Shown: positions 11,058 through 47,194 of the stretch, in pieces
How positions within the stretch are numbered: the stretch's first letter is position 1
Layout of the letters: every line of letters begins with the position of its first letter
DNA from: Candidatus Nomurabacteria bacterium
GTDB lineage: Bacteria > Patescibacteriota > Minisyncoccia > Phycocordibacterales > UBA9973
Reading direction: 5' to 3'
Assembly (NCBI GenBank): GCA_943356375.1
Contig: CALRET010000001.1
Span: 1 to 48,437, forward strand
Length of the DNA stretch: 48,437 nucleotides
Notes under the pieces: model-generated
The model's input: only the letters and a program-made list of their open reading frames with translations
Database searches by the model: none
Told to the model about the DNA's origin: nothing
Position numbers and translations under genes: made by a program

Positions 11058-14000
11058 ATGGAAGAAAACAATCAAAACAAATCAACCGTAGCTCTCGAAC
11101 CTAAACACACCAAGTCTAGTGCATCGGTCAGGGAGGAAGCAGTTTTGCAATTCTGGAAAGAAAATAATGTATTTGAAAAAACATTAGAAAAAGAATCTCC
11201 AAAAGGTGATTTCGTTTTCTATGATGGTCCACCAACAGCAAACGGAAAGCCGGGAATTCACCATCTCGAACCGCGCGCATTCAAGGATGCGATTCCTCGC
11301 TATAAAACAATGCAGGGATTTCATGTGCGCCGTAAAGGGGGATGGGATACACATGGATTGCCAGTGGAACTTCAAGTGGAAAAAGCGCTCGGACTCAAAT
11401 CAAAAAAAGAAATTGAACAATACGGTATTGAGAAATTTAATGCCGAATGTCGAAAAAGTGTCTGGACTTATATTGACGAATGGGAGAGATTTACCGATCG
11501 CATGGGGTATTGGATCGATCATGAGAATCCATATCGAACGTATGACAATTCATATATTCAATCGCTCTGGAATGTCGTCAAAAAAATAGACGATCAAAAC
11601 TTGCTATATAAAGATTACAAAGTTGTCCCATATTGTCCACGCTGTGGAACCGCTCTTTCTTCTCACGAACTTGCACAAGGATATCAAGATGATACAGATC
11701 TTTCAGTTACAGCAAAATTTAAAATCGTTGGTGTTGAAAATGGATATTTTTTAGCTTGGACAACAACACCATGGACACTTCCAGGTAATGTTGGATTGGC
11801 TGTAGGTAGTGATATTACGTATGTTGAAGCAAAAGTTGGTAATCAAATTTTAGTACTTGCAAAAGACCGCCTTTCAATAATTACTGAACCTTACGAAGTT
11901 GTTGCGGAACATAAGGGTTCAGAAATGGTTGGCATGCAATACGAACCACTGTATCCATATCTTGCAGAGCTTGATAAAGGAGATGAGAAATTAAATAACG
12001 CATACAAGGTGTACGCGGCAGATTTTGTGACCACAACTGATGGTACTGGAATTGTTCACACTGCTGTTATGTATGGACAAGAAGACTTTGAACTCGGAAC
12101 AAAAGTTGGATTACCAAAATTCCACCTCGTAAATCCAGACGGAACATTCATTACTGGCACTGGTATCTTTGAAGGAAGATTTGTAAAAGACGAAGCAGTT
12201 GCAGTGGACGTCATCAAAGACCTTGCACACAGAGGATTACTATTCAAAAAAGAAAAATATACGCACAGTTATCCGCATTGCTGGCGCTGTTCGACTCCGC
12301 TCATCTATTACGCACGTGATTCATGGTATATCGGCATGTCAAAACTCCGCGATAAACTTGTTGCAGAAAACGAAGGTATTAATTGGGAACCATCTCATGT
12401 AAAAGAGGGTCGCTTTGGCGAATGGATTCGCGAAGTGAAAGATTGGGCGATTTCCCGTGAACGATATTGGGGAACGCCACTTCCTATTTGGGTTGCGGAA
12501 GACGGAGAAAAATTTGTCGTTGATTCGTTTGAAACATTGAAGAAATATACCAAGAAATCAGGAAACAAATATGTTGTCATGCGACATGGTGAATCGACTC
12601 ACAATGTGGATTGGTTATGTAGTTCTGTTGCGGGTTATCCTCATCATCTTACTGATAGTGGTAAGGCAACAGTTCTAGAGACGGCACAAGAATTTAAAAG
12701 TAAAAATATTACAGCAATATACTGTTCTCCCTTTCTCCGTACAAAAGAAACAGCAGAGATTGTCGCTGATGCGATCGGCTTCGACAAGTCAAAAATAATC
12801 TATGATGATCGGATTGCTGAATTTAAATTCGGTGATTTTCATCTGAAACCATTTCCAGAATATATAGCATGGAGAAAAGAAACAGGAGACTCTATTGATT
12901 TACAAGCACCAAATGGAGAGAGTATCTCAGATGCGCGTCATCGTTTTGCATCATTCTTTTATGATATTGATCAGCAACATAAGAATGAAACTGTTTTAGT
13001 TGTTACTCATGGCATCGGACTTGAAACACTTCCGGCCGTTGAGTGTGGATATGATAAAAAACAGATGTGGGAGAAGTGGCACATGAATCTGGTTGCTCCA
13101 GGAAAATTTCAAGATTTCAATTTTATTCCATTACCACACAATGAGATCTATGAACTTGATGTACATCGACCATTTATAGATAAGATTGTCCTTGAGAAAA
13201 ACGGTAAGCAATTTACGCGTGTTAAAGAAGTCATGGATGTCTGGTTTGATTCTGGTGCGATGCCGTTTGCACAGGATGGGTATCCGTTTCTCACTGACAA
13301 GATGTATTATCCAGCAGACTTCATTGCCGAAGGGCTCGACCAAACACGCGGTTGGTTCTATACACTCCATGCTGTGGGTGCACTCATGGGTACAGGGAAG
13401 GCATATAAAAATGTAATCTGCCTTGGGCTTATTCTTGATAAAGATGGTAAGAAAATGTCGAAATCAAAAGGAAATGTCGTTGATCCGTGGATGATGATGG
13501 ATAAATATGGCGCCGACACTCTCCGCTTGTGGATGTATGCGGTGAACCAGCCAGGGGATTCAAAAAACTTCGACGAGAAAACTGTTGCAGAACTTCATAA
13601 CAAAGTATTTAACCTGCTCTATAACGTACTCGCATTCTACGAGCTGTATCGTGATAGAGAACTTGAACGTGATATTGATGCTGATCCTGCAACTTCCACT
13701 AATCCTCTGGATCAATGGATATTTGTTCGACTGGCAGAATTGACAGAAACTATGACGGCAAATCTAGAAAGTTATAAATTGCTTGAACCGGTTCGTGCGA
13801 TGCGTGAATTCATCGACGATCTTTCGACGTGGTATGTTCGCCGATCACGTGATCGATTAAAAGAAGGATCTCTCGTTTCTAAAAAAACTTTGTACGTAGT
13901 CTTAAAAACTGTTGCAAAGTTACTTGCACCATTCGCACCTTTTGCTGCAGAGGATATTTGGCAACGACTCCGTCAGTCATCAGATGAACTTTCAGTTCAC

Positions 14001-14528
14001 CTCGTATCTTGGCCGGAGTCGCAGGTTCTAGTTTCTAGTGGCGAGGTTCTAGAAAAAATGCGAATTGTACGAGAAATTGTATCTTTAGGATTAGAAGCAA
14101 GACAGAAAGCGGGAATTAAAGTTAAACAACCACTTAGTAAATTAAAAGTTAAAAATGAAGAGTTAAAAAGCGAATACCTAGAACTTATAAAAGAAGAATT
14201 GAATATAAAAGAAGTTGTTTTTGGTGATGAATTTGAACTCAATACTGAAATAACTGAAGAATTAAAGAAAGAAGGGCAGATAAGAGAACTTATTAGAGGC
14301 TTTCAAGATGAACGTAAACGATTAGGCCTAAACCCAGCTGATGTGATTAATCTCTTGGTTGAAACTGATAATAAGGGAAATGAAATTATAGAATTATTTA
14401 AAGACGAAATTAAAAAAATAGTAAATATTAGGGAACTTTCATTGCAAAAAAATGAAGGGGATATAATTTCCATTGATGATATGAATTTCAAGTTTTCTAT
14501 AAAAATGCTCTATACTAAAGAGGTATGA
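11058..14528 (+). CDS. ileS: Isoleucine--tRNA ligase with an inserted histidine-phosphatase domain
   Basis: HIGH-type motif (GKPGIHHLEP), WGTPLPIW, DVWFDSGAMPF, DQTRGWFYT and KMSKSKGN. 1156 aa. Residues ~505-700 form an extra RHG...SPFLRTKET...VTHG domain. Confidence 0.9.
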   Translation: MEENNQNKSTVALEPKHTKSSASVREEAVLQFWKENNVFEKTLEKESPKGDFVFYDGPPTANGKPGIHHLEPRAFKDAIPRYKTMQGFHVRRKGGWDTHGLPVELQVEKALGLKSKKEIEQYGIEKFNAECRKSVWTYIDEWERFTDRMGYWIDHENPYRTYDNSYIQSLWNVVKKIDDQNLLYKDYKVVPYCPRCGTALSSHELAQGYQDDTDLSVTAKFKIVGVENGYFLAWTTTPWTLPGNVGLAVGSDITYVEAKVGNQILVLAKDRLSIITEPYEVVAEHKGSEMVGMQYEPLYPYLAELDKGDEKLNNAYKVYAADFVTTTDGTGIVHTAVMYGQEDFELGTKVGLPKFHLVNPDGTFITGTGIFEGRFVKDEAVAVDVIKDLAHRGLLFKKEKYTHSYPHCWRCSTPLIYYARDSWYIGMSKLRDKLVAENEGINWEPSHVKEGRFGEWIREVKDWAISRERYWGTPLPIWVAEDGEKFVVDSFETLKKYTKKSGNKYVVMRHGESTHNVDWLCSSVAGYPHHLTDSGKATVLETAQEFKSKNITAIYCSPFLRTKETAEIVADAIGFDKSKIIYDDRIAEFKFGDFHLKPFPEYIAWRKETGDSIDLQAPNGESISDARHRFASFFYDIDQQHKNETVLVVTHGIGLETLPAVECGYDKKQMWEKWHMNLVAPGKFQDFNFIPLPHNEIYELDVHRPFIDKIVLEKNGKQFTRVKEVMDVWFDSGAMPFAQDGYPFLTDKMYYPADFIAEGLDQTRGWFYTLHAVGALMGTGKAYKNVICLGLILDKDGKKMSKSKGNVVDPWMMMDKYGADTLRLWMYAVNQPGDSKNFDEKTVAELHNKVFNLLYNVLAFYELYRDRELERDIDADPATSTNPLDQWIFVRLAELTETMTANLESYKLLEPVRAMREFIDDLSTWYVRRSRDRLKEGSLVSKKTLYVVLKTVAKLLAPFAPFAAEDIWQRLRQSSDELSVHLVSWPESQVLVSSGEVLEKMRIVREIVSLGLEARQKAGIKVKQPLSKLKVKNEELKSEYLELIKEELNIKEVVFGDEFELNTEITEELKKEGQIRELIRGFQDERKRLGLNPADVINLLVETDNKGNEIIELFKDEIKKIVNIRELSLQKNEGDIISIDDMNFKFSIKMLYTKEV
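12570..13026 (+). other. Histidine phosphatase (phosphoglycerate-mutase-like) domain embedded in IleRS
   Basis: YVVMRHGESTHN (RHG motif), CSPFLRTKETAE, AEFKFGDF, NGESISDARHR and LVVTHGIGLE. All canonical catalytic positions of the His_Phos_1 fold are readable. Confidence 0.75.
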
Positions 14529-32963: not shown

Positions 32964-33629
32964 ATGCTTACTTCTCTAGTTAAGAATCAAACAAAAAATA
33001 TTACCTCGTTAGGAGTTGGATTTTTGGTTGTGCTTATTATTACCTCGTTCTTTCATGAATTGTCTGAATCTTCCTACGAACTGAGTGTCATTCTCTATGG
33101 AGCACTTGCAATTGCTTTAGGTATCGCAGTTGGGAGATTTCTTGCTGTACATGTGAGTGTGTGTGATCATGTGCATTTGGACAACTCAAAGGATCTTTCA
33201 TTTCTTTTAGTCGTCTGTCTAACTAGTTTCGGGCACACGATTATTGATGGGTCAGTTCTTGATAGTGCATGGTCGCTCTCGACCAGTGCTGGGATATTCG
33301 CACTGCTTGCAATCGTGGGACATGAGATATTCAGAACAGGAGTTTTGTTTAGTGTGCTTCGAGCGATGGGATTTCCAAAGTGGGTGAGTGGACTTTCTGT
33401 ATTTGGAATTTCTATTGCTGGTCTCCTTATTGGATTTATTCTCGGCGGATTTCTTGATCTTGGATCATACGAAGGATTTGTACACATCATCTCAATCTTT
33501 TTCTATACGATCGTCGTTACCGATGTTTTTCTTTTCTTAAAAAAACATTACGAAGGGATTGCATACGTATTCCTTTTCATTGGAGCAATTATCGGATTGA
33601 TTGTTGAAGTGGTGATATCGATACATTAG
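32964..33629 (+). CDS. Polytopic membrane protein, possibly ZIP-like metal transporter
   Basis: His-containing TM motifs FGHTIIDG and VGHEIFRTGVLFSVL are reminiscent of the ZIP HExxxExGDF helix. Weak call. Confidence 0.3.
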   Translation: MLTSLVKNQTKNITSLGVGFLVVLIITSFFHELSESSYELSVILYGALAIALGIAVGRFLAVHVSVCDHVHLDNSKDLSFLLVVCLTSFGHTIIDGSVLDSAWSLSTSAGIFALLAIVGHEIFRTGVLFSVLRAMGFPKWVSGLSVFGISIAGLLIGFILGGFLDLGSYEGFVHIISIFFYTIVVTDVFLFLKKHYEGIAYVFLFIGAIIGLIVEVVISIH

Positions 33630-33636
33630 AGATAGT

Positions 33637-33959
33637 GTGGTCAGGAATAATTTTGTTTTCGTCAAAACAAAATTTTCACGACCCTGGGTATGGAATTGCC
33701 CCTCGTTTCACTCGGAATCCTCAATTTTATAACTGTGGTCAGGGATATTTTTTCTGTCGTCACAGAAAAAATTCCACGACCCTGGCTCGCGGTTTTATCT
33801 GCTGATAAAACATCACTCCGCCTCGCACAAGCTAAAAATCTCCCGCAGGGGAGATTTTTTAATTTAGCTGTGGTCACACATAAAATTCTGCTGAATTTTT
33901 GCGCGACCCCGCCTCGGCACCGTCGTGCCTGTGGCTCGCACAAAGTGTCCCACACTTTG
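33637..33959. repeat. G+C-rich hairpin-dense repeat block adjoining tRNA-Lys (three box-hairpin-box modules plus extra tetraloop hairpins)
   Basis: Modules at 33637-33687, 33734-33785 and 33869-33913 have the layout TGTGGTCA, AT-rich hairpin, CRCGACCC. Further hairpins at 33792-33811, 33833-33860 (terminator-like), 33916-33929 and 33937-33963. Confidence 0.8.
33833..33860. terminator. Bidirectional intrinsic-terminator-like hairpin inside the repeat block
   Basis: AAAAATCTCCC GCAG GGGAGATTTTTT. Confidence 0.6.
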
Positions 33960-34032
33960 TGCGCCCGGTAGGAATTGAACCTACGACCATCTCCTTAAAA
34001 GGGAGCTGCTCTACCAACTGAGCTACGGGCGC
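33960..34032 (-). tRNA. tRNA-Lys (anticodon UUU)
   Basis: The reverse complement folds as a cloverleaf: GCGCCCG TA GCTC AGTTGGTA GAGC A GCTCC CTTTTAA GGAGA TGGTC GTAGG TTCAATT CCTAC CGGGCGC A. CCA is not encoded. Confidence 0.9.
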
Positions 34033-34111
34033 ATATATAAATTAAAGATAAAAAACAACTTCTCTTGTTTACAATAAGAGAAAAATACCATATTCTTAGC
34101 TCAAAAGCAAT

Positions 34112-34585
34112 ATGAAAAATAAATCCGTTGCCATTTTATATAACACTCGAAGCACACATAACGTGGGCTCAATCTTTCGCACTGCAGATGCGGTTGGGAT
34201 TTCGCACATCTATTTGATTGGCTATACGCCGGCTCCGATTGATCGATTTGGTCGAGAACGGAAAGATATTGCAAAGGTCTCATTAGGAGCAGAAGTGTCT
34301 ATTCCATGGTCGCACCATGAGACTATTGATGCAGTCTTCTCGGAACTGAAAGAGAAAGAGTACCAATTGGTTGCCATTGAACAATCGCCACAAAGTGTTG
34401 ATTATAAAGATGTGAAGGTTGGTGAATTAATCGCCTTTATTGTTGGAGAAGAAGTTGAAGGTCTACCTGAAAAAATATTGGAGATGGTAGATGTAGTGGC
34501 AGAAATACCTATGGCCGGAACAAAAGAATCCCTCAATGTTTCAGTCGCCTTTGGTATCGCTGTCTTTAGGATCCTAGGGTTATAA
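34112..34585 (+). CDS. SpoU/TrmH family RNA 2'-O-methyltransferase
   Basis: HNVGSIFRTADAVGI, FIVGEEVEGL and ESLNVSVAFGIAVF are SPOUT motifs 1-3. Confidence 0.75.
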   Translation: MKNKSVAILYNTRSTHNVGSIFRTADAVGISHIYLIGYTPAPIDRFGRERKDIAKVSLGAEVSIPWSHHETIDAVFSELKEKEYQLVAIEQSPQSVDYKDVKVGELIAFIVGEEVEGLPEKILEMVDVVAEIPMAGTKESLNVSVAFGIAVFRILGL

Positions 34586-38765: not shown

Positions 38766-38800
38766 GTATTAGATAGTAGCTTACAGCTTGTAGCTGATAG
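38766..38800 (-). repeat. Degenerate heptamer array x5
   Basis: The minus strand reads CTATCAG CTACAAG CTGTAAG CTACTAT CTAATAC. It overlaps the last codons of the four-helix-bundle gene and abuts the recA start. Confidence 0.65.
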
Positions 38801-39167
38801 GACCACTGTCTTGTTGAAATTTCTTTATAATAGTTGCTAACATTTTTTGTACCTCAATAACGAGACCTAGAGGTTTTTCAGTATCAATTGTAGCATATAA
38901 TTCTTTTGCAATAAGTAGTTGTGTTTCAAGTTCTGCGGCTGATCCACTTGCAATTCTTAAAAATTGTGAAAAATCTTTTTTTGTACCTCGCTTCTTACCC
39001 TCTGCTATATTTGAAGGAATTGATACAGCGGAACGTTCCATTTGAGAGCGTAAATTAAATATCTCAGATTTTGGGAGTTTTTCACATAACATATAGATTT
39101 CTTTAACTAATTGCATGGATCTTTGCCAAACAAGTAAATCTTTAAATGATGTTATTTGTGTACTCAT
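38781..39167 (-). CDS. Four-helix-bundle protein (23S rRNA intervening-sequence protein / Avd-like family)
   Basis: [18 protein letters not shown]...[44 protein letters not shown] is the characteristic family signature. Confidence 0.8.
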
Positions 39168-45808: not shown

Positions 45809-46414
45809 ATGTTTCGAAAAGACCCATTTATAACTGGAGAATACTATCACATCTACAATAGAGGTATTGATAAGAGAGATATCTTTAAATCCACGTTTGA
45901 TCACGAAAGGTTTATGATGCTTTTATATGTTGCAAATTCTCACGAAGACTTACGACTCGATAATCTGGTTAACCGTCTTCATAAGACATTTCAAGATATC
46001 TTAGTTTTAGATAAAGGAAAACCATTAGTTTCTATTGGTGCATGGTGTCTCATGACCAATCATTTTCACTTACTGGTACGACAAGAAGTCGAAGGTGGAA
46101 TTACAAAATTTATGAGGAAACTAGGGGTTGGGTATTCAATGTATTTCAATATTAAATATCAAAGACAGGGCGCGTTGTTCGGGGGACCATTTAAATCAAA
46201 ACTTATCGGAGTAGATGACGCATATATGCAGTATCTTTTGGGGTATATTCATCTCAATCCACTTGATATAGAGTTCTATCAATGGAAACAGAATCTTGAT
46301 AGACCAACAGAAGAGATGAAGGGATTTTTGGAATCATATAGATATTCAAGTTATCAGGAAGGATTAGCAAGGACGGTCCTTGCTACAGGCTTTATATCTG
46401 ATAAAATAGACTAA
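45809..46414 (+). CDS. REP-associated tyrosine transposase (RAYT)/IS200-like Y1 HUH protein, C-terminus replaced by a REP insertion
   Basis: HUH motif CLMTNHFHLLVRQ. The catalytic Tyr lies in LLGYIHLNPLD. After ...SYRYSSY, the reading frame runs through the hairpin (QEGLARTVLATG...). Confidence 0.75.
   Translation: MFRKDPFITGEYYHIYNRGIDKRDIFKSTFDHERFMMLLYVANSHEDLRLDNLVNRLHKTFQDILVLDKGKPLVSIGAWCLMTNHFHLLVRQEVEGGITKFMRKLGVGYSMYFNIKYQRQGALFGGPFKSKLIGVDDAYMQYLLGYIHLNPLDIEFYQWKQNLDRPTEEMKGFLESYRYSSYQEGLARTVLATGFISDKID
46365..46385. repeat. REP-like palindrome (GGAC variant) inside the 3' end of the first RAYT gene
   Basis: TAGCAAGGAC G GTCCTTGCTA. Confidence 0.8.
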
Positions 46415-47154
46415 TGCTCCGTAAAGATCCATTTATAACTGGTGAATACTATCATATATACAATAGAGGTATCGACAAGCGAGATATCTTTAAATCAAAA
46501 TTTGATCACGAAAGATTTATCATGTTGTTATATGTTGCAAATTCAGATAAACAGTTACGACTTGATAATCTTATAAATCACTCTCATAAAAAATTTGAAG
46601 AAATTCTTGTATTAGATAAAGGTAATCCACTAGTTTCTATTGGTGCATGGTGTCTCATGACTAATCATTTCCACTTACTGATACGACAAGAAGTCGAAGG
46701 CGGAATAACAAAATTCATGAAGAAATTGGGTACAGGATATTCAATGTACTTTAATATTAAATACCAGAGAAAAGGCGCATTATTCGGTGGACTTTTTAAG
46801 TCAAAACTTATTGGTGTTGATGATGGGTACATGCAGTATCTTTTGGGATATATTCACCTTAATCCACTCGATATTCAATTTTCTGGGTGGGATAGTGATG
46901 ATACGGATGGTAATAATGCCGACGAAGATGAGATTATATATGATCAGAAAGATATGAAAATCTTTTTAGAATCATATAGATATTCGAGTTATATGGATTA
47001 TATAAATATAAAAGATCCAAGAGTCGAATCGAAAATTCTTAAACTTGATGTTTTTCCAGAATATTTTAAAGACGGGAAAGCATTTAAGGATTTTGTTGAA
47101 AATTATTTTATTACTGACCCAGAAACAGGGAATGGTTTTAAATTCAAATTCTAA
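46414..47154 (+). CDS. REP-associated tyrosine transposase (RAYT)/IS200-like Y1 HUH protein, full length
   Basis: CLMTNHFHLLIRQ (HUH) and LLGYIHLNPLD (Y1). Very similar by eye to the upstream paralog over the shared region. TAATG overlap with the upstream stop. Confidence 0.8.
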   Translation: MLRKDPFITGEYYHIYNRGIDKRDIFKSKFDHERFIMLLYVANSDKQLRLDNLINHSHKKFEEILVLDKGNPLVSIGAWCLMTNHFHLLIRQEVEGGITKFMKKLGTGYSMYFNIKYQRKGALFGGLFKSKLIGVDDGYMQYLLGYIHLNPLDIQFSGWDSDDTDGNNADEDEIIYDQKDMKIFLESYRYSSYMDYINIKDPRVESKILKLDVFPEYFKDGKAFKDFVENYFITDPETGNGFKFKF

Positions 47155-47157
47155 CTC

Positions 47158-47194
47158 ATAACCTATAGCAAGGACCGTCCTTGCTATAGGTTAT
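47158..47194. repeat. REP-like palindrome (18-bp stem) closing the island
   Basis: ATAACCTATAGCAAGGAC C GTCCTTGCTATAGGTTAT. Confidence 0.85.

Follow-up and report, generated by a model that had tools for sequence, protein, structure and literature searches.

In the current study we analysed a contig of 48,437 nucleotides from Candidatus Nomurabacteria bacterium (CALRET010000001.1, hereafter the window), in which the DNA between the tRNA-Lys(UUU) gene and a convergent membrane-protein gene is occupied by an array of three tandem units located on the minus strand, i.e. the sense strand of tRNA-Lys. These units belong to a conserved family of structured non-coding elements which follow tRNA genes in some Patescibacteria and fold on the tRNA-sense strand. 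The family is linked exclusively to tRNAs, carries a segment (J1) that matches the 3' end of the adjacent tRNA, and closes each unit with a hairpin (module M) that has the geometry of an acceptor stem. The interpretation which we favour, with about even confidence, is that of a tRNA-trailer array of structured RNA units which pair with the tRNA end, terminate in an acceptor mimic, are probably processed by tRNA enzymes and evolve in the manner of a selfish tandem repeat. A family of structured RNAs had been the fallback of an earlier, sequence-only reading of the window, and it is this fallback that the evidence favours. Patescibacteria possess tiny genomes with little non-coding DNA, so a structured and conserved block of 330 bp is unlikely to be idle. 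Within the databases and the literature that were searched the family has no earlier description, full-text searches having found none.

The block had first been described as containing three box-hairpin-box modules, R1 to R3, physically fused to the tRNA 3' end, and both statements hold: the pattern TGTGGTCA-N20-50-CGACCC has exactly three matches in the window, where 0.01 would be expected by chance, and the array begins at the discriminator base. Scanning of metagenome contigs with a pattern of the module boxes only, which contains no tRNA sequence, returned 107 loci, 14 of which were true homologs by blastn and covariance model (G+C content 32-52%); the modules are therefore not unique to this locus. 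A tRNA gene on the same strand lies immediately upstream in all 15 arrays for which upstream sequence is present (15/15), while three further arrays are cut by contig ends. The tRNAs concerned are Lys-UUU, Ala-UGC, Ala-GGC, Val-CAC, Arg-UCG, Arg-GCG, Glu-CUC, Ile-GAU and one with a CAU anticodon, representing at least eight species, and three of the related loci (designated here by L numbers), namely L037, L054 and L098, have arrays after two different tRNAs on one contig. The covariance model produced 44 matches in approximately 780 kb, all of them in family loci, and the sole match away from tRNA trailers is weak (E 0.0017); in the window it matches three times and no more, always on the minus strand.

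The association extends to individual nucleotides of the tRNA. Among first units, the first helix starts exactly at N70 of the tRNA in 10 of 12 arrays, and the sequence of J1 follows the identity of the tRNA end: J1 reads UGUGCG where the tRNA ends in CGCA (Lys, Val, Ile), UGUGGA after UCCA (Ala), UGUGCA after UGCA (Arg) and AGUGAC after GUCA-CU (Glu). The tRNAs without arrays in the same contigs mostly have no helix starting at N70. J1 of internal units keeps its tRNA-specific bases across otherwise diverged genomes, which argues for ongoing selection rather than for the footprint of an insertion.

A full unit measures approximately 131-135 nt and is composed of three hairpins, P1/T, P2/H3 and M, which are linked by single nucleotides. 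P1/T is an A-run/stem/loop (often CUGC)/stem/U-run hairpin which resembles a bidirectional intrinsic terminator and whose stem is extended by pairing of the upstream end with the J1 segment of the unit (..CUUGUG-NNN), the upstream strand being either the tRNA end (N70-N73, then CA..) or the end of the preceding module (..CCA-CA..). P2, a newly found junction helix of 3 bp (G-N-C with G-N'-C), closes the H3 hairpin, in which one bulged G and a tandem G.A/A.G precede three covarying pairs; next come an AU bulge and a U4/A4 helix, and lastly a variable stem with an A-N-Y-A loop. M corresponds to the box-hairpin-box module and is a hairpin of approximately 20 bp with a tetraloop and one bulged A, its consensus in tRNA sense being GGGUCGYG-RAAWUUU-(variable stem)-GACG-(variable stem)-AAAWUAUY-YNUGACC-ACA; the first seven pairs join GGUCGYG with YNUGACC, an invariant G.U included, and are succeeded by an unpaired A and then CA. 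Kissing of the T loop (CUGC) with the H3 loop (..GCAG) was considered and rejected, since the H3 loop varies (AUCA, AACA, AGUA) and the T loop is constant.

The three units of the window (Table 1) represent different states of this plan. Unit 1 is a short form, in which P1 is devoid of the terminator-like insert: its 5' arm is made of tRNA nucleotides 70-73 and the trailer (CGCA-CAAAGUGU), its 3' arm ends in J1 (..UUUGUGCG), and the unit then comprises J1 (GUGCGAG), P2 (GCC/GGC), a mini-hairpin, H1, which is a reduced H3, and module M. Unit 2 is the canonical full form, where the R3 tail (CACAGCU) pairs with AGCUUGUG around the hairpin AAAAAUCUCCC-CUGC-GGGAGAUUUUU, and where H3 is followed by J2 and then by M. 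Unit 3 is degenerate: a linker without T, J1 and H3, which resembles the core of a second kind of trailer unit described below as type 2, is followed by a canonical M, and 6 nt separate the end of the unit from the convergent membrane-protein gene's stop codon. The hairpins listed by the sequence-only reading were all recovered as perfect inverted repeats, with the correction that the one taking in the tRNA end has 12 bp and not 11.

Module M resembles the end of a tRNA gene. In the window and 19 related loci, 27 of 33 tRNA genes end in N73-C-A and only two encode the full CCA; tRNA-Lys(UUU) of the window does not encode CCA, A73 being followed by CA. M ends in GACC-A-CA in nearly every unit, and the stem GGUCGYG/YNUGACC followed by A-CA is found in 18-19 of 19 units, so that M exhibits the geometry of an acceptor minihelix: a terminal stem of 7 bp, an unpaired discriminator base and a tRNA-like 3' flank. 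The A-CA of M is, moreover, often followed by AAG and a terminator-like hairpin, as after a genuine tRNA. Because the units end as the tRNA genes do, we propose that RNase Z, perhaps also RNase P and the CCA-adding enzyme, may act at M.

Compensatory change provides the evidence that these hairpins are maintained. R1 and R2, read directly from their sequences, differ at four positions per arm in mirrored fashion, as had been claimed, and the alignment of 19 distinct units from 13 metagenomic loci extends this observation and supports the earlier view that the hairpins are under selection. In this alignment 94.7% of cells form standard pairs compared to 75.4% in column shuffles, and sliding the partners by 1-3 columns reduces pairing to 37-50%. 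Two-sided change is seen in 23 of 34 pairs (131 compensatory cells), a level of covariation reached by none of 500 shuffles (0/500). Relatedness among the units inflates the significance given by the shuffle control; real constraint is indicated by the slid control and by the large number of different pair types found within columns. The middle pair of P2, for instance, is GC in eight units, CG in seven and AU in four.

The same alignment indicates which strand folds. On the tRNA-sense strand there are 42 G.U against four A.C combinations, one G.U pair being present in 19/19 units, and G.U pairs read on the opposite strand become C.A mismatches; therefore, the folded strand is the tRNA-sense strand. 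The minus strand of the window also folds better (-134.8 kcal/mol, z -8.45 versus shuffles) than the plus strand (-120.2 kcal/mol, z -6.05). The folded molecule could be RNA or, less simply, single-stranded DNA of the tRNA-sense strand. The sequence-only reading had preferred a strand-symmetric role at the DNA level, akin to that of repetitive extragenic palindromic (REP) sequences, with R1 and R2 transcribed in the opposite sense to R3. This proposal is not supported: pairing is strongly asymmetric, the arrays of other genomes are all co-oriented with their upstream tRNA, and all three units match one covariance model on the minus strand only.

According to the interpretation favoured here, the units would be transcribed from the tRNA-Lys promoter via read-through of the T hairpins; J1 would pair with tRNA nucleotides 70-73 and the trailer, tying the unit to the tRNA end, and the unit-terminal M (7-bp stem, unpaired A, CA) would copy the tRNA acceptor stem together with its genomic 3' flank. 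RNase Z, perhaps with RNase P and the CCA-adding enzyme, would cut the transcript at each M, the array being punctuated as tRNAs punctuate polycistronic precursors, and arrays would grow or shrink by tandem duplication and recombination. Candidate roles of the released RNAs include selfish persistence, service as a decoy for a protein or a tRNA enzyme, and control of tRNA 3' maturation. The transcription of the units, the cleavage at M and any such role are inferred. A related but unlikely possibility is an element acting through RNA only, in which J1 would read the last four tRNA nucleotides and M would hijack RNase Z, RNase P or the CCA-adding enzyme, serving expression, excision and possibly re-targeting of the element, or else the control of host tRNA 3' maturation; such an element would need no dedicated protein gene nearby.

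A number of observations weigh against a processed RNA array. M has no T-loop and its recognition by RNase P or RNase Z is consequently not assured. A good intrinsic terminator stands at the start of each full unit, which would leave read-through as the only way to the distal units, and a consensus scan found no internal promoter-like sites in the units, nor was a conserved -35/-10 pair seen. Hairpins containing G.T are equally readable on single-stranded DNA, and the conserved loops GACG, AGCA and CUGC are not classical RNA tetraloops. The distribution is patchy: relatives whose SpoU methylase (encoded beside tRNA-Lys) is 62-67% identical to that of the window have the orthologous tRNA-Lys without the family, a search at E up to 1 finding no unit of the window's kind (type 1) in L121, L123, L125 and L126, all of which have a tRNA-Lys near SpoU. 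Identical copies stand in tandem in some arrays (L078 and L118, as well as L088 and L075 with 3 x 131 bp), and units are shuffled between arrays, the R3-type M of the window being found, nearly identical, as the second unit in L107; these two properties together have the look of a selfish or mobile repeat rather than of a housekeeping RNA. Finally, the sampling favoured arrays in which two or more modules have the conserved boxes.

The terminator-like hairpins invite a simpler explanation, namely that the block is a multi-hairpin terminator or insulator of a highly transcribed tRNA gene which blocks read-through from both sides, with H3 and M as auxiliary stabilising hairpins only. The bidirectional terminator-like hairpin noted earlier (33833-33860) is indeed present: the T hairpin of unit 2 has a G+C-containing stem followed by a U-run, as intrinsic terminators do, and has this appearance in both directions, being called with its T-run by a terminator scan on the plus strand and showing, as read from the sequence, U5 after the stem on the minus strand. 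Homologous A-run/stem/U-run hairpins with U5-U6 occupy the T position in all other arrays, so that every full unit carries a structure typical of bidirectional intrinsic terminators, and the window array lies between convergent transcription units, tRNA-Lys and the membrane-protein gene. We nevertheless regard a pure terminator function as quite improbable. The parts that are conserved and covary most strongly, H3 and M, do not carry a U-tract, and in the window the first unit is without a terminator hairpin altogether; on the same contigs a plain terminator, or none, suffices for many tRNAs. This explanation, furthermore, leaves unaccounted for both the match of J1 to tRNA nucleotides 70-73 and the acceptor-like M.

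Close relatives of the window reveal how the array changes. An array after tRNA-Lys is present in L002 and L004, whose SpoU proteins are 79% and 77% identical to that of the window. The tRNA-proximal 110 nt of the window and L002 differ by a single base despite this 79% identity of SpoU, while the H3 and R2 stems are quite different in sequence with their pairing kept. Comparison of the tRNA-Lys locus among relatives, which the sequence-only reading had suggested, showed that the number of modules does differ, there being three units in the window and two in L002; unit 3 is absent from both L002 and L004, and in L002 the R1 unit is lost save for a degenerate remnant at an inversion breakpoint. 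The block of array, tRNA-Lys and SpoU is inverted relative to its flanks between close relatives: rpsF comes after SpoU in the window, L006, L001 and L003, whereas in L002, L004 and L007 the membrane-protein gene takes this place and the array borders the rpsF promoter; L107 has the tRNA and array ahead of SpoU, all on one strand. The array locus is, judging by these comparisons, a rearrangement hot spot, and its long palindromes may be the cause. As the array stays with tRNA-Lys in L002 and L004 while the membrane-protein gene is elsewhere, it is the tRNA, and not the plus-strand gene, with which the array moves. A 3' UTR (untranslated region) element of the membrane-protein gene, which is how R1 and R2 had been placed, is accordingly rejected, since this gene does not lie beside the array in L002, L004 or L007. 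A scan of genome contigs with SpoU did not return a close relative.

Some further observations were made at these loci. Just upstream of the intact tRNA-Lys, L002 (2690-2780) and L004 (1400-1490) contain a degenerate copy of the tRNA-Lys 5' part, which covers the acceptor strand and D-arm and is interrupted by approximately 30 nt of inserted sequence. In L088 (9583-9880, with a mirror copy in L075), extra partial copies of tRNA-Ile lie between tRNA-Ile and its array, one of which resembles a second tRNA-Ile whose anticodon loop is interrupted by approximately 150 nt, an insertion that itself includes a copy of the tRNA 3' end. Several independent assemblies of close relatives (L001, L003, L006 and L007) break within tRNA-Lys or module R3, which is consistent with repeats or strain-level structural variation at the locus.

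A second and more widespread kind of trailer element, type 2, follows tRNA-Arg, tRNA-Ser and tRNA-Lys in the distant relatives L121, L123, L125 and L126. Its first part is a P1/T hairpin, which pairs with as many as 8 nt of the tRNA 3' end; after a further hairpin come a copy of the 5' strand of the tRNA T-stem and then AAUCGAAAG..CUUUUC, and at the end the T-stem and acceptor 3' strand of the tRNA are directly repeated over 14-34 bp; in L118 this repeat includes 16 nt of non-tRNA flank. The whole folds as a tRNA-like structure with a closing stem, and no Rfam match was found for the type-2 units.

These findings bear on the principal rival of the RNA array, a small non-autonomous mobile or recombination DNA element which would target tRNA 3' ends by means of single-stranded DNA hairpins or att-like sites, with J1 as target guide, a recombinase, HUH enzyme or integrase encoded elsewhere as the agent of spread and amplification, and the RNA-like fold being that of single-stranded DNA or incidental. 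Such an element would explain why the family occurs after at least eight different tRNAs, and after two on one contig in three loci, with a patchy taxonomic distribution; it agrees with the differing copy number in close relatives, with the identical tandem copies and shuffled unit types, and with the inversion of the locus. The tRNA 3'-end repeats which flank type-2 units, and especially the 16-nt non-tRNA flank in L118, which resembles an att site or target duplication, point the same way. The window also contains two adjacent HUH-like genes with weak Y1/IS200-like, RAYT-like domains (45809-47154; 23-26 bits against a cut-off of 80), directly followed by a perfect 18-bp palindrome with a 1-nt loop (47158-47194); neither the genes nor the palindrome are related to the tRNA-trailer modules. 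The link drawn by the sequence-only reading between the modules and these genes is not upheld: they lie 12 kb away and fall below the RAYT cut-off, and no module-like hairpin occurs near them. Pfam scans beside 12 arrays and near the array of the window detected no recombinase, transposase or reverse transcriptase, and no copy of the family was found in viral contigs, phages or plasmids. Type-1 units do not have long direct repeats, and the tRNA-specific bases of J1 in internal units speak against an insertion footprint. Miniature elements of the IS200/IS605 type (PATE) have hairpins at their left and right ends, work with a TnpA or TnpB protein and are inserted at dispersed copies of a short target; strand-specific hairpins and a guide-like J1 are compatible with them in principle. 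No TnpA or TnpB gene is found beside any array, and the weak Y1-like genes lie 12 kb off. Overall, we consider a mobile DNA element somewhat unlikely, and continue to prefer the array of processed RNA units.

Table 1. Positions of the array, its parts and neighbouring genes in the window, and of type-2 elements in related loci
Feature	Position	Strand	Remarks
tRNA-Lys(UUU)	33959/33960-34032	minus	ARAGORN; Rfam tRNA 74.1 bits; array begins at discriminator base
P1 of unit 1	33937-33963	minus	12-bp hairpin, loop GGG; perfect inverted repeat, 100% complementary; takes in tRNA nucleotides 70-73
Unit 1, short form	33867-33941	minus	covariance-model match, 49.6 bits, E 6.5e-09
H1 mini-hairpin of unit 1 (reduced H3)	33916-33929	minus	GGCAC-GACG-GUGCC
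M of unit 1 = R3	33870-33908	minus	AGCA loop
P1/T of unit 2	33826-33872	minus	inverted repeat
T hairpin of unit 2	33834-33859		perfect inverted repeat
Terminator scan call	33839-33852	plus	stem of T hairpin, followed by T-run
Unit 2, canonical full form	33732-33828	minus	covariance-model match, 105.4 bits, E 2.7e-22
J1 of unit 2	33815-33828	minus	GUGCGAGGCGGAG
P2 of unit 2	33820-33822 with 33784-33786	minus	paired strands
H3 of unit 2	33792-33811 (core)	minus	loop AGCA; perfect inverted repeat; extended by GUG/CGC with AU bulge
M of unit 2 = R2	33735-33781	minus	
R2 stem	33747-33772		perfect inverted repeat
Unit 3, degenerate	33634-33731	minus	covariance-model match 33634-33708, 55.3 bits, E 2.8e-10
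Linker of unit 3	33684-33731	minus	
M of unit 3 = R1	33637-33683	minus	canonical
R1 stem	33649-33674		perfect inverted repeat
Matches of TGTGGTCA-N20-50-CGACCC	33636-33684, 33734-33782, 33869-33909		pattern scan; all on one strand
Membrane-protein gene	32964-33629		221 aa; convergent with tRNA-Lys; no Pfam match
SpoU/TrmH methylase gene	34112-34585		divergent from tRNA-Lys; next: rpsF-ssb operon
Type-2 elements, L123	12693-12990, 19650-19949		
Type-2 element, L126	17150-17403		
Type-2 element, L125	480-769		
Type-2 elements, L118	497-640, 2930-3082		
Type-2 elements, L054	72-200, 6640-6827		

The block itself is modestly richer in G+C than its surroundings (0.48 at 33700-33999 versus approximately 0.32-0.42), which substantiates, in milder form, its earlier description as G+C-rich. 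The two mutually antisense open reading frames (ORFs) reported there are both present, and the one in tRNA sense has no homolog among 5.8 billion proteins; a decayed protein gene is rejected on this basis and because the hairpins explain the region. Misassembly, which the sequence-only reading had named as a concern, is likewise rejected, as the block is reproduced by the independent contigs L003, L002 and L004. Named homologs of SpoU derive from Paceibacterota, Minisyncoccia and 'Pacebacteria', and Pfam scans of the rest of the window show ordinary Patescibacteria housekeeping genes. Two others deserve mention: an isoleucyl-tRNA synthetase-like gene (11058-14528, 1156 aa) has a histidine-phosphatase domain (His_Phos_1) inserted at residues 506-672, and 38781-39167, adjoining recA, encodes a four-helix-bundle protein of the 23S rRNA intervening-sequence or bAvd-like family, no reverse transcriptase being seen by Pfam scans of the window.

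Pfam scans covered 47 ORFs of the window and 29 ORFs beside other arrays. The neighbours of 12 arrays are unrelated housekeeping genes (ruvA, doxX, a Mur ligase gene, rplI, a methyltransferase gene, alr, secDF, an ABC transporter gene, a NUDIX gene, pgi, an MPG glycosylase gene, clpP and spoU), in agreement with the earlier statement that no integrase, cas gene or transposase is adjacent. The accompanying statement that the block matches no known element class also stands: at the gathering threshold of Rfam 15 only tRNA passes, in the window and 10 related loci, and with E up to 10 the region 33400-34200 gives only scattered sub-threshold matches which are driven by the terminator hairpin. A known RNA gene (RNase P RNA, transfer-messenger RNA (tmRNA), signal recognition particle RNA, 6S RNA or a ribozyme) is rejected, there being no Rfam match and no tmRNA reported by ARAGORN. 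The same applies to a leader or riboswitch of a downstream gene, since the downstream genes differ at every locus and the one in the window is convergent. Phage or plasmid origin is rejected as blastn against phages and plasmids gave no match, and the lone pattern match in a viral contig is due to chance, lying inside coding DNA of high G+C content.

If the units are RNAs processed by tRNA enzymes, they would represent a bacterial case of tRNA-style punctuation yielding a new class of small RNA, and may hint at a means of controlling tRNA 3' maturation where CCA is not encoded in the tRNA genes. If they are mobile DNA, they would form a protein-less repeat family guided by tRNA ends and driving local rearrangement. 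On either reading, a covariance model and a testable structure are now available for an element that Rfam does not contain, in which three features not previously seen together are combined: exclusive post-tRNA placement, a segment covarying with the acceptor end and a unit-terminal acceptor-stem mimic.

Several known systems share individual features with the family. TIGR-Tas systems, which are common in Patescibacteria and include a stem-loop array variant, have units of approximately 36 nt or of stem-loop form, each with two unpaired spacers of 8-12 nt and with CCA and UG boxes, and a Nop-domain Tas gene beside the array (PMC12045711). The present arrays are similar in their tandem stem-loop units, short conserved boxes (M ends in UGACCA), host phylum and proposed processing from a long precursor. 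It is nevertheless very improbable, and already largely refuted, that the arrays supply guide RNAs in the manner of TIGR-Tas, CRISPR or bridge RNAs, with the variable inner sequences as guides: the variable segments are self-complementary stems and not unpaired dual spacers, the period is approximately 98-135 nt instead of 36 nt, and the arrays are tied to tRNAs, not to a protein gene. No gene for a Nop-domain protein (Tas), Cas, IS110, TnpB or IscB was found in the scanned ORFs of the window or beside the 12 arrays; some of these ORFs lack a Pfam match, so that a very divergent Tas could escape. CRISPR proper and the RNA repeats of type III toxin-antitoxin systems (ToxI), which are short and regular direct repeats beside a cas or toxin gene, are rejected because the units are heterogeneous, of approximately 75-135 nt, and neighboured by housekeeping genes.

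Among DNA repeats, REP sequences and the bacterial interspersed mosaic elements (BIMEs) built from them are scattered in high copy number over the intergenic regions of a genome, frequently as inverted pairs (REPINs), together with a RAYT gene flanked by repeats. Like BIMEs and pneumococcal BOX elements, the arrays are modular mosaics of imperfect palindromes with variable tandem copy number, located in non-coding DNA after genes and having the look of selfish amplification; they differ in standing only after tRNA genes and in one orientation, in forming no inverted pairs, in carrying a segment that matches the adjacent tRNA, in flanking no RAYT gene and in occupying one locus in 48 kb. A REP/BIME system with RAYT is rejected, given that the three copies of the window lie at one locus in one orientation, that elsewhere copies were found only in tRNA trailers (contigs searched), and that the Y1-like genes score below the cut-off without module-like repeats around them. 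Integron attC sites consist of R'' and R' boxes, RYYYAAC and GTTRRRY, with gene cassettes between sites; here the boxes are GGGTCGYG and YNTGACCAC, with hairpins and not ORFs between modules, and attC sites or their integrase-less clusters (CALIN) are rejected. Integrative elements at tRNA 3' ends, or their remnants, share the location, and type-2 units are similarly flanked by direct repeats of the tRNA 3' end; the units described here, however, measure only approximately 75-150 bp, have no integrase and contain strongly covarying hairpins, and the type-1 units of the window have no tRNA-end direct repeat.

The likenesses to RNA systems concern the tRNA end. In T-box riboswitches, too, a short RNA segment pairs by Watson-Crick rules with the acceptor end, including the discriminator base, and covaries with tRNA identity. 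Pairing in the arrays is in cis, involves the gene-encoded N70-N73 and CA trailer in place of the mature NCCA end and reaches 3 bp into the acceptor stem; there is no regulated gene downstream. Non-coding RNAs that are linked to tRNAs or tRNA-like structures and set free by tRNA-processing enzymes include MALAT1/mascRNA, the tRNA-miRNA units of gammaherpesviruses and the trailer RNAs of bacterial 3' external transcribed spacers. The arrays resemble them in placing a non-coding RNA directly after a tRNA on the same strand and in the putative use of a tRNA or tRNA-like acceptor helix as processing site. They are distinguished by tandem repetition, by the acceptor-stem mimic M within each unit and by pairing with tRNA nucleotides 70-73, and have no sequence or Rfam relationship to these RNAs. 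Plant dicistronic tRNA-snoRNA genes are, according to work cited in PMC12045711 (its refs 66-67), cut by RNase Z. By analogy only, the closest functional counterparts of the family would be tRNA-linked RNAs released by RNase Z or RNase P, mosaics of the BIME and BOX kind, and the pairing of T-box RNAs with the tRNA acceptor end.

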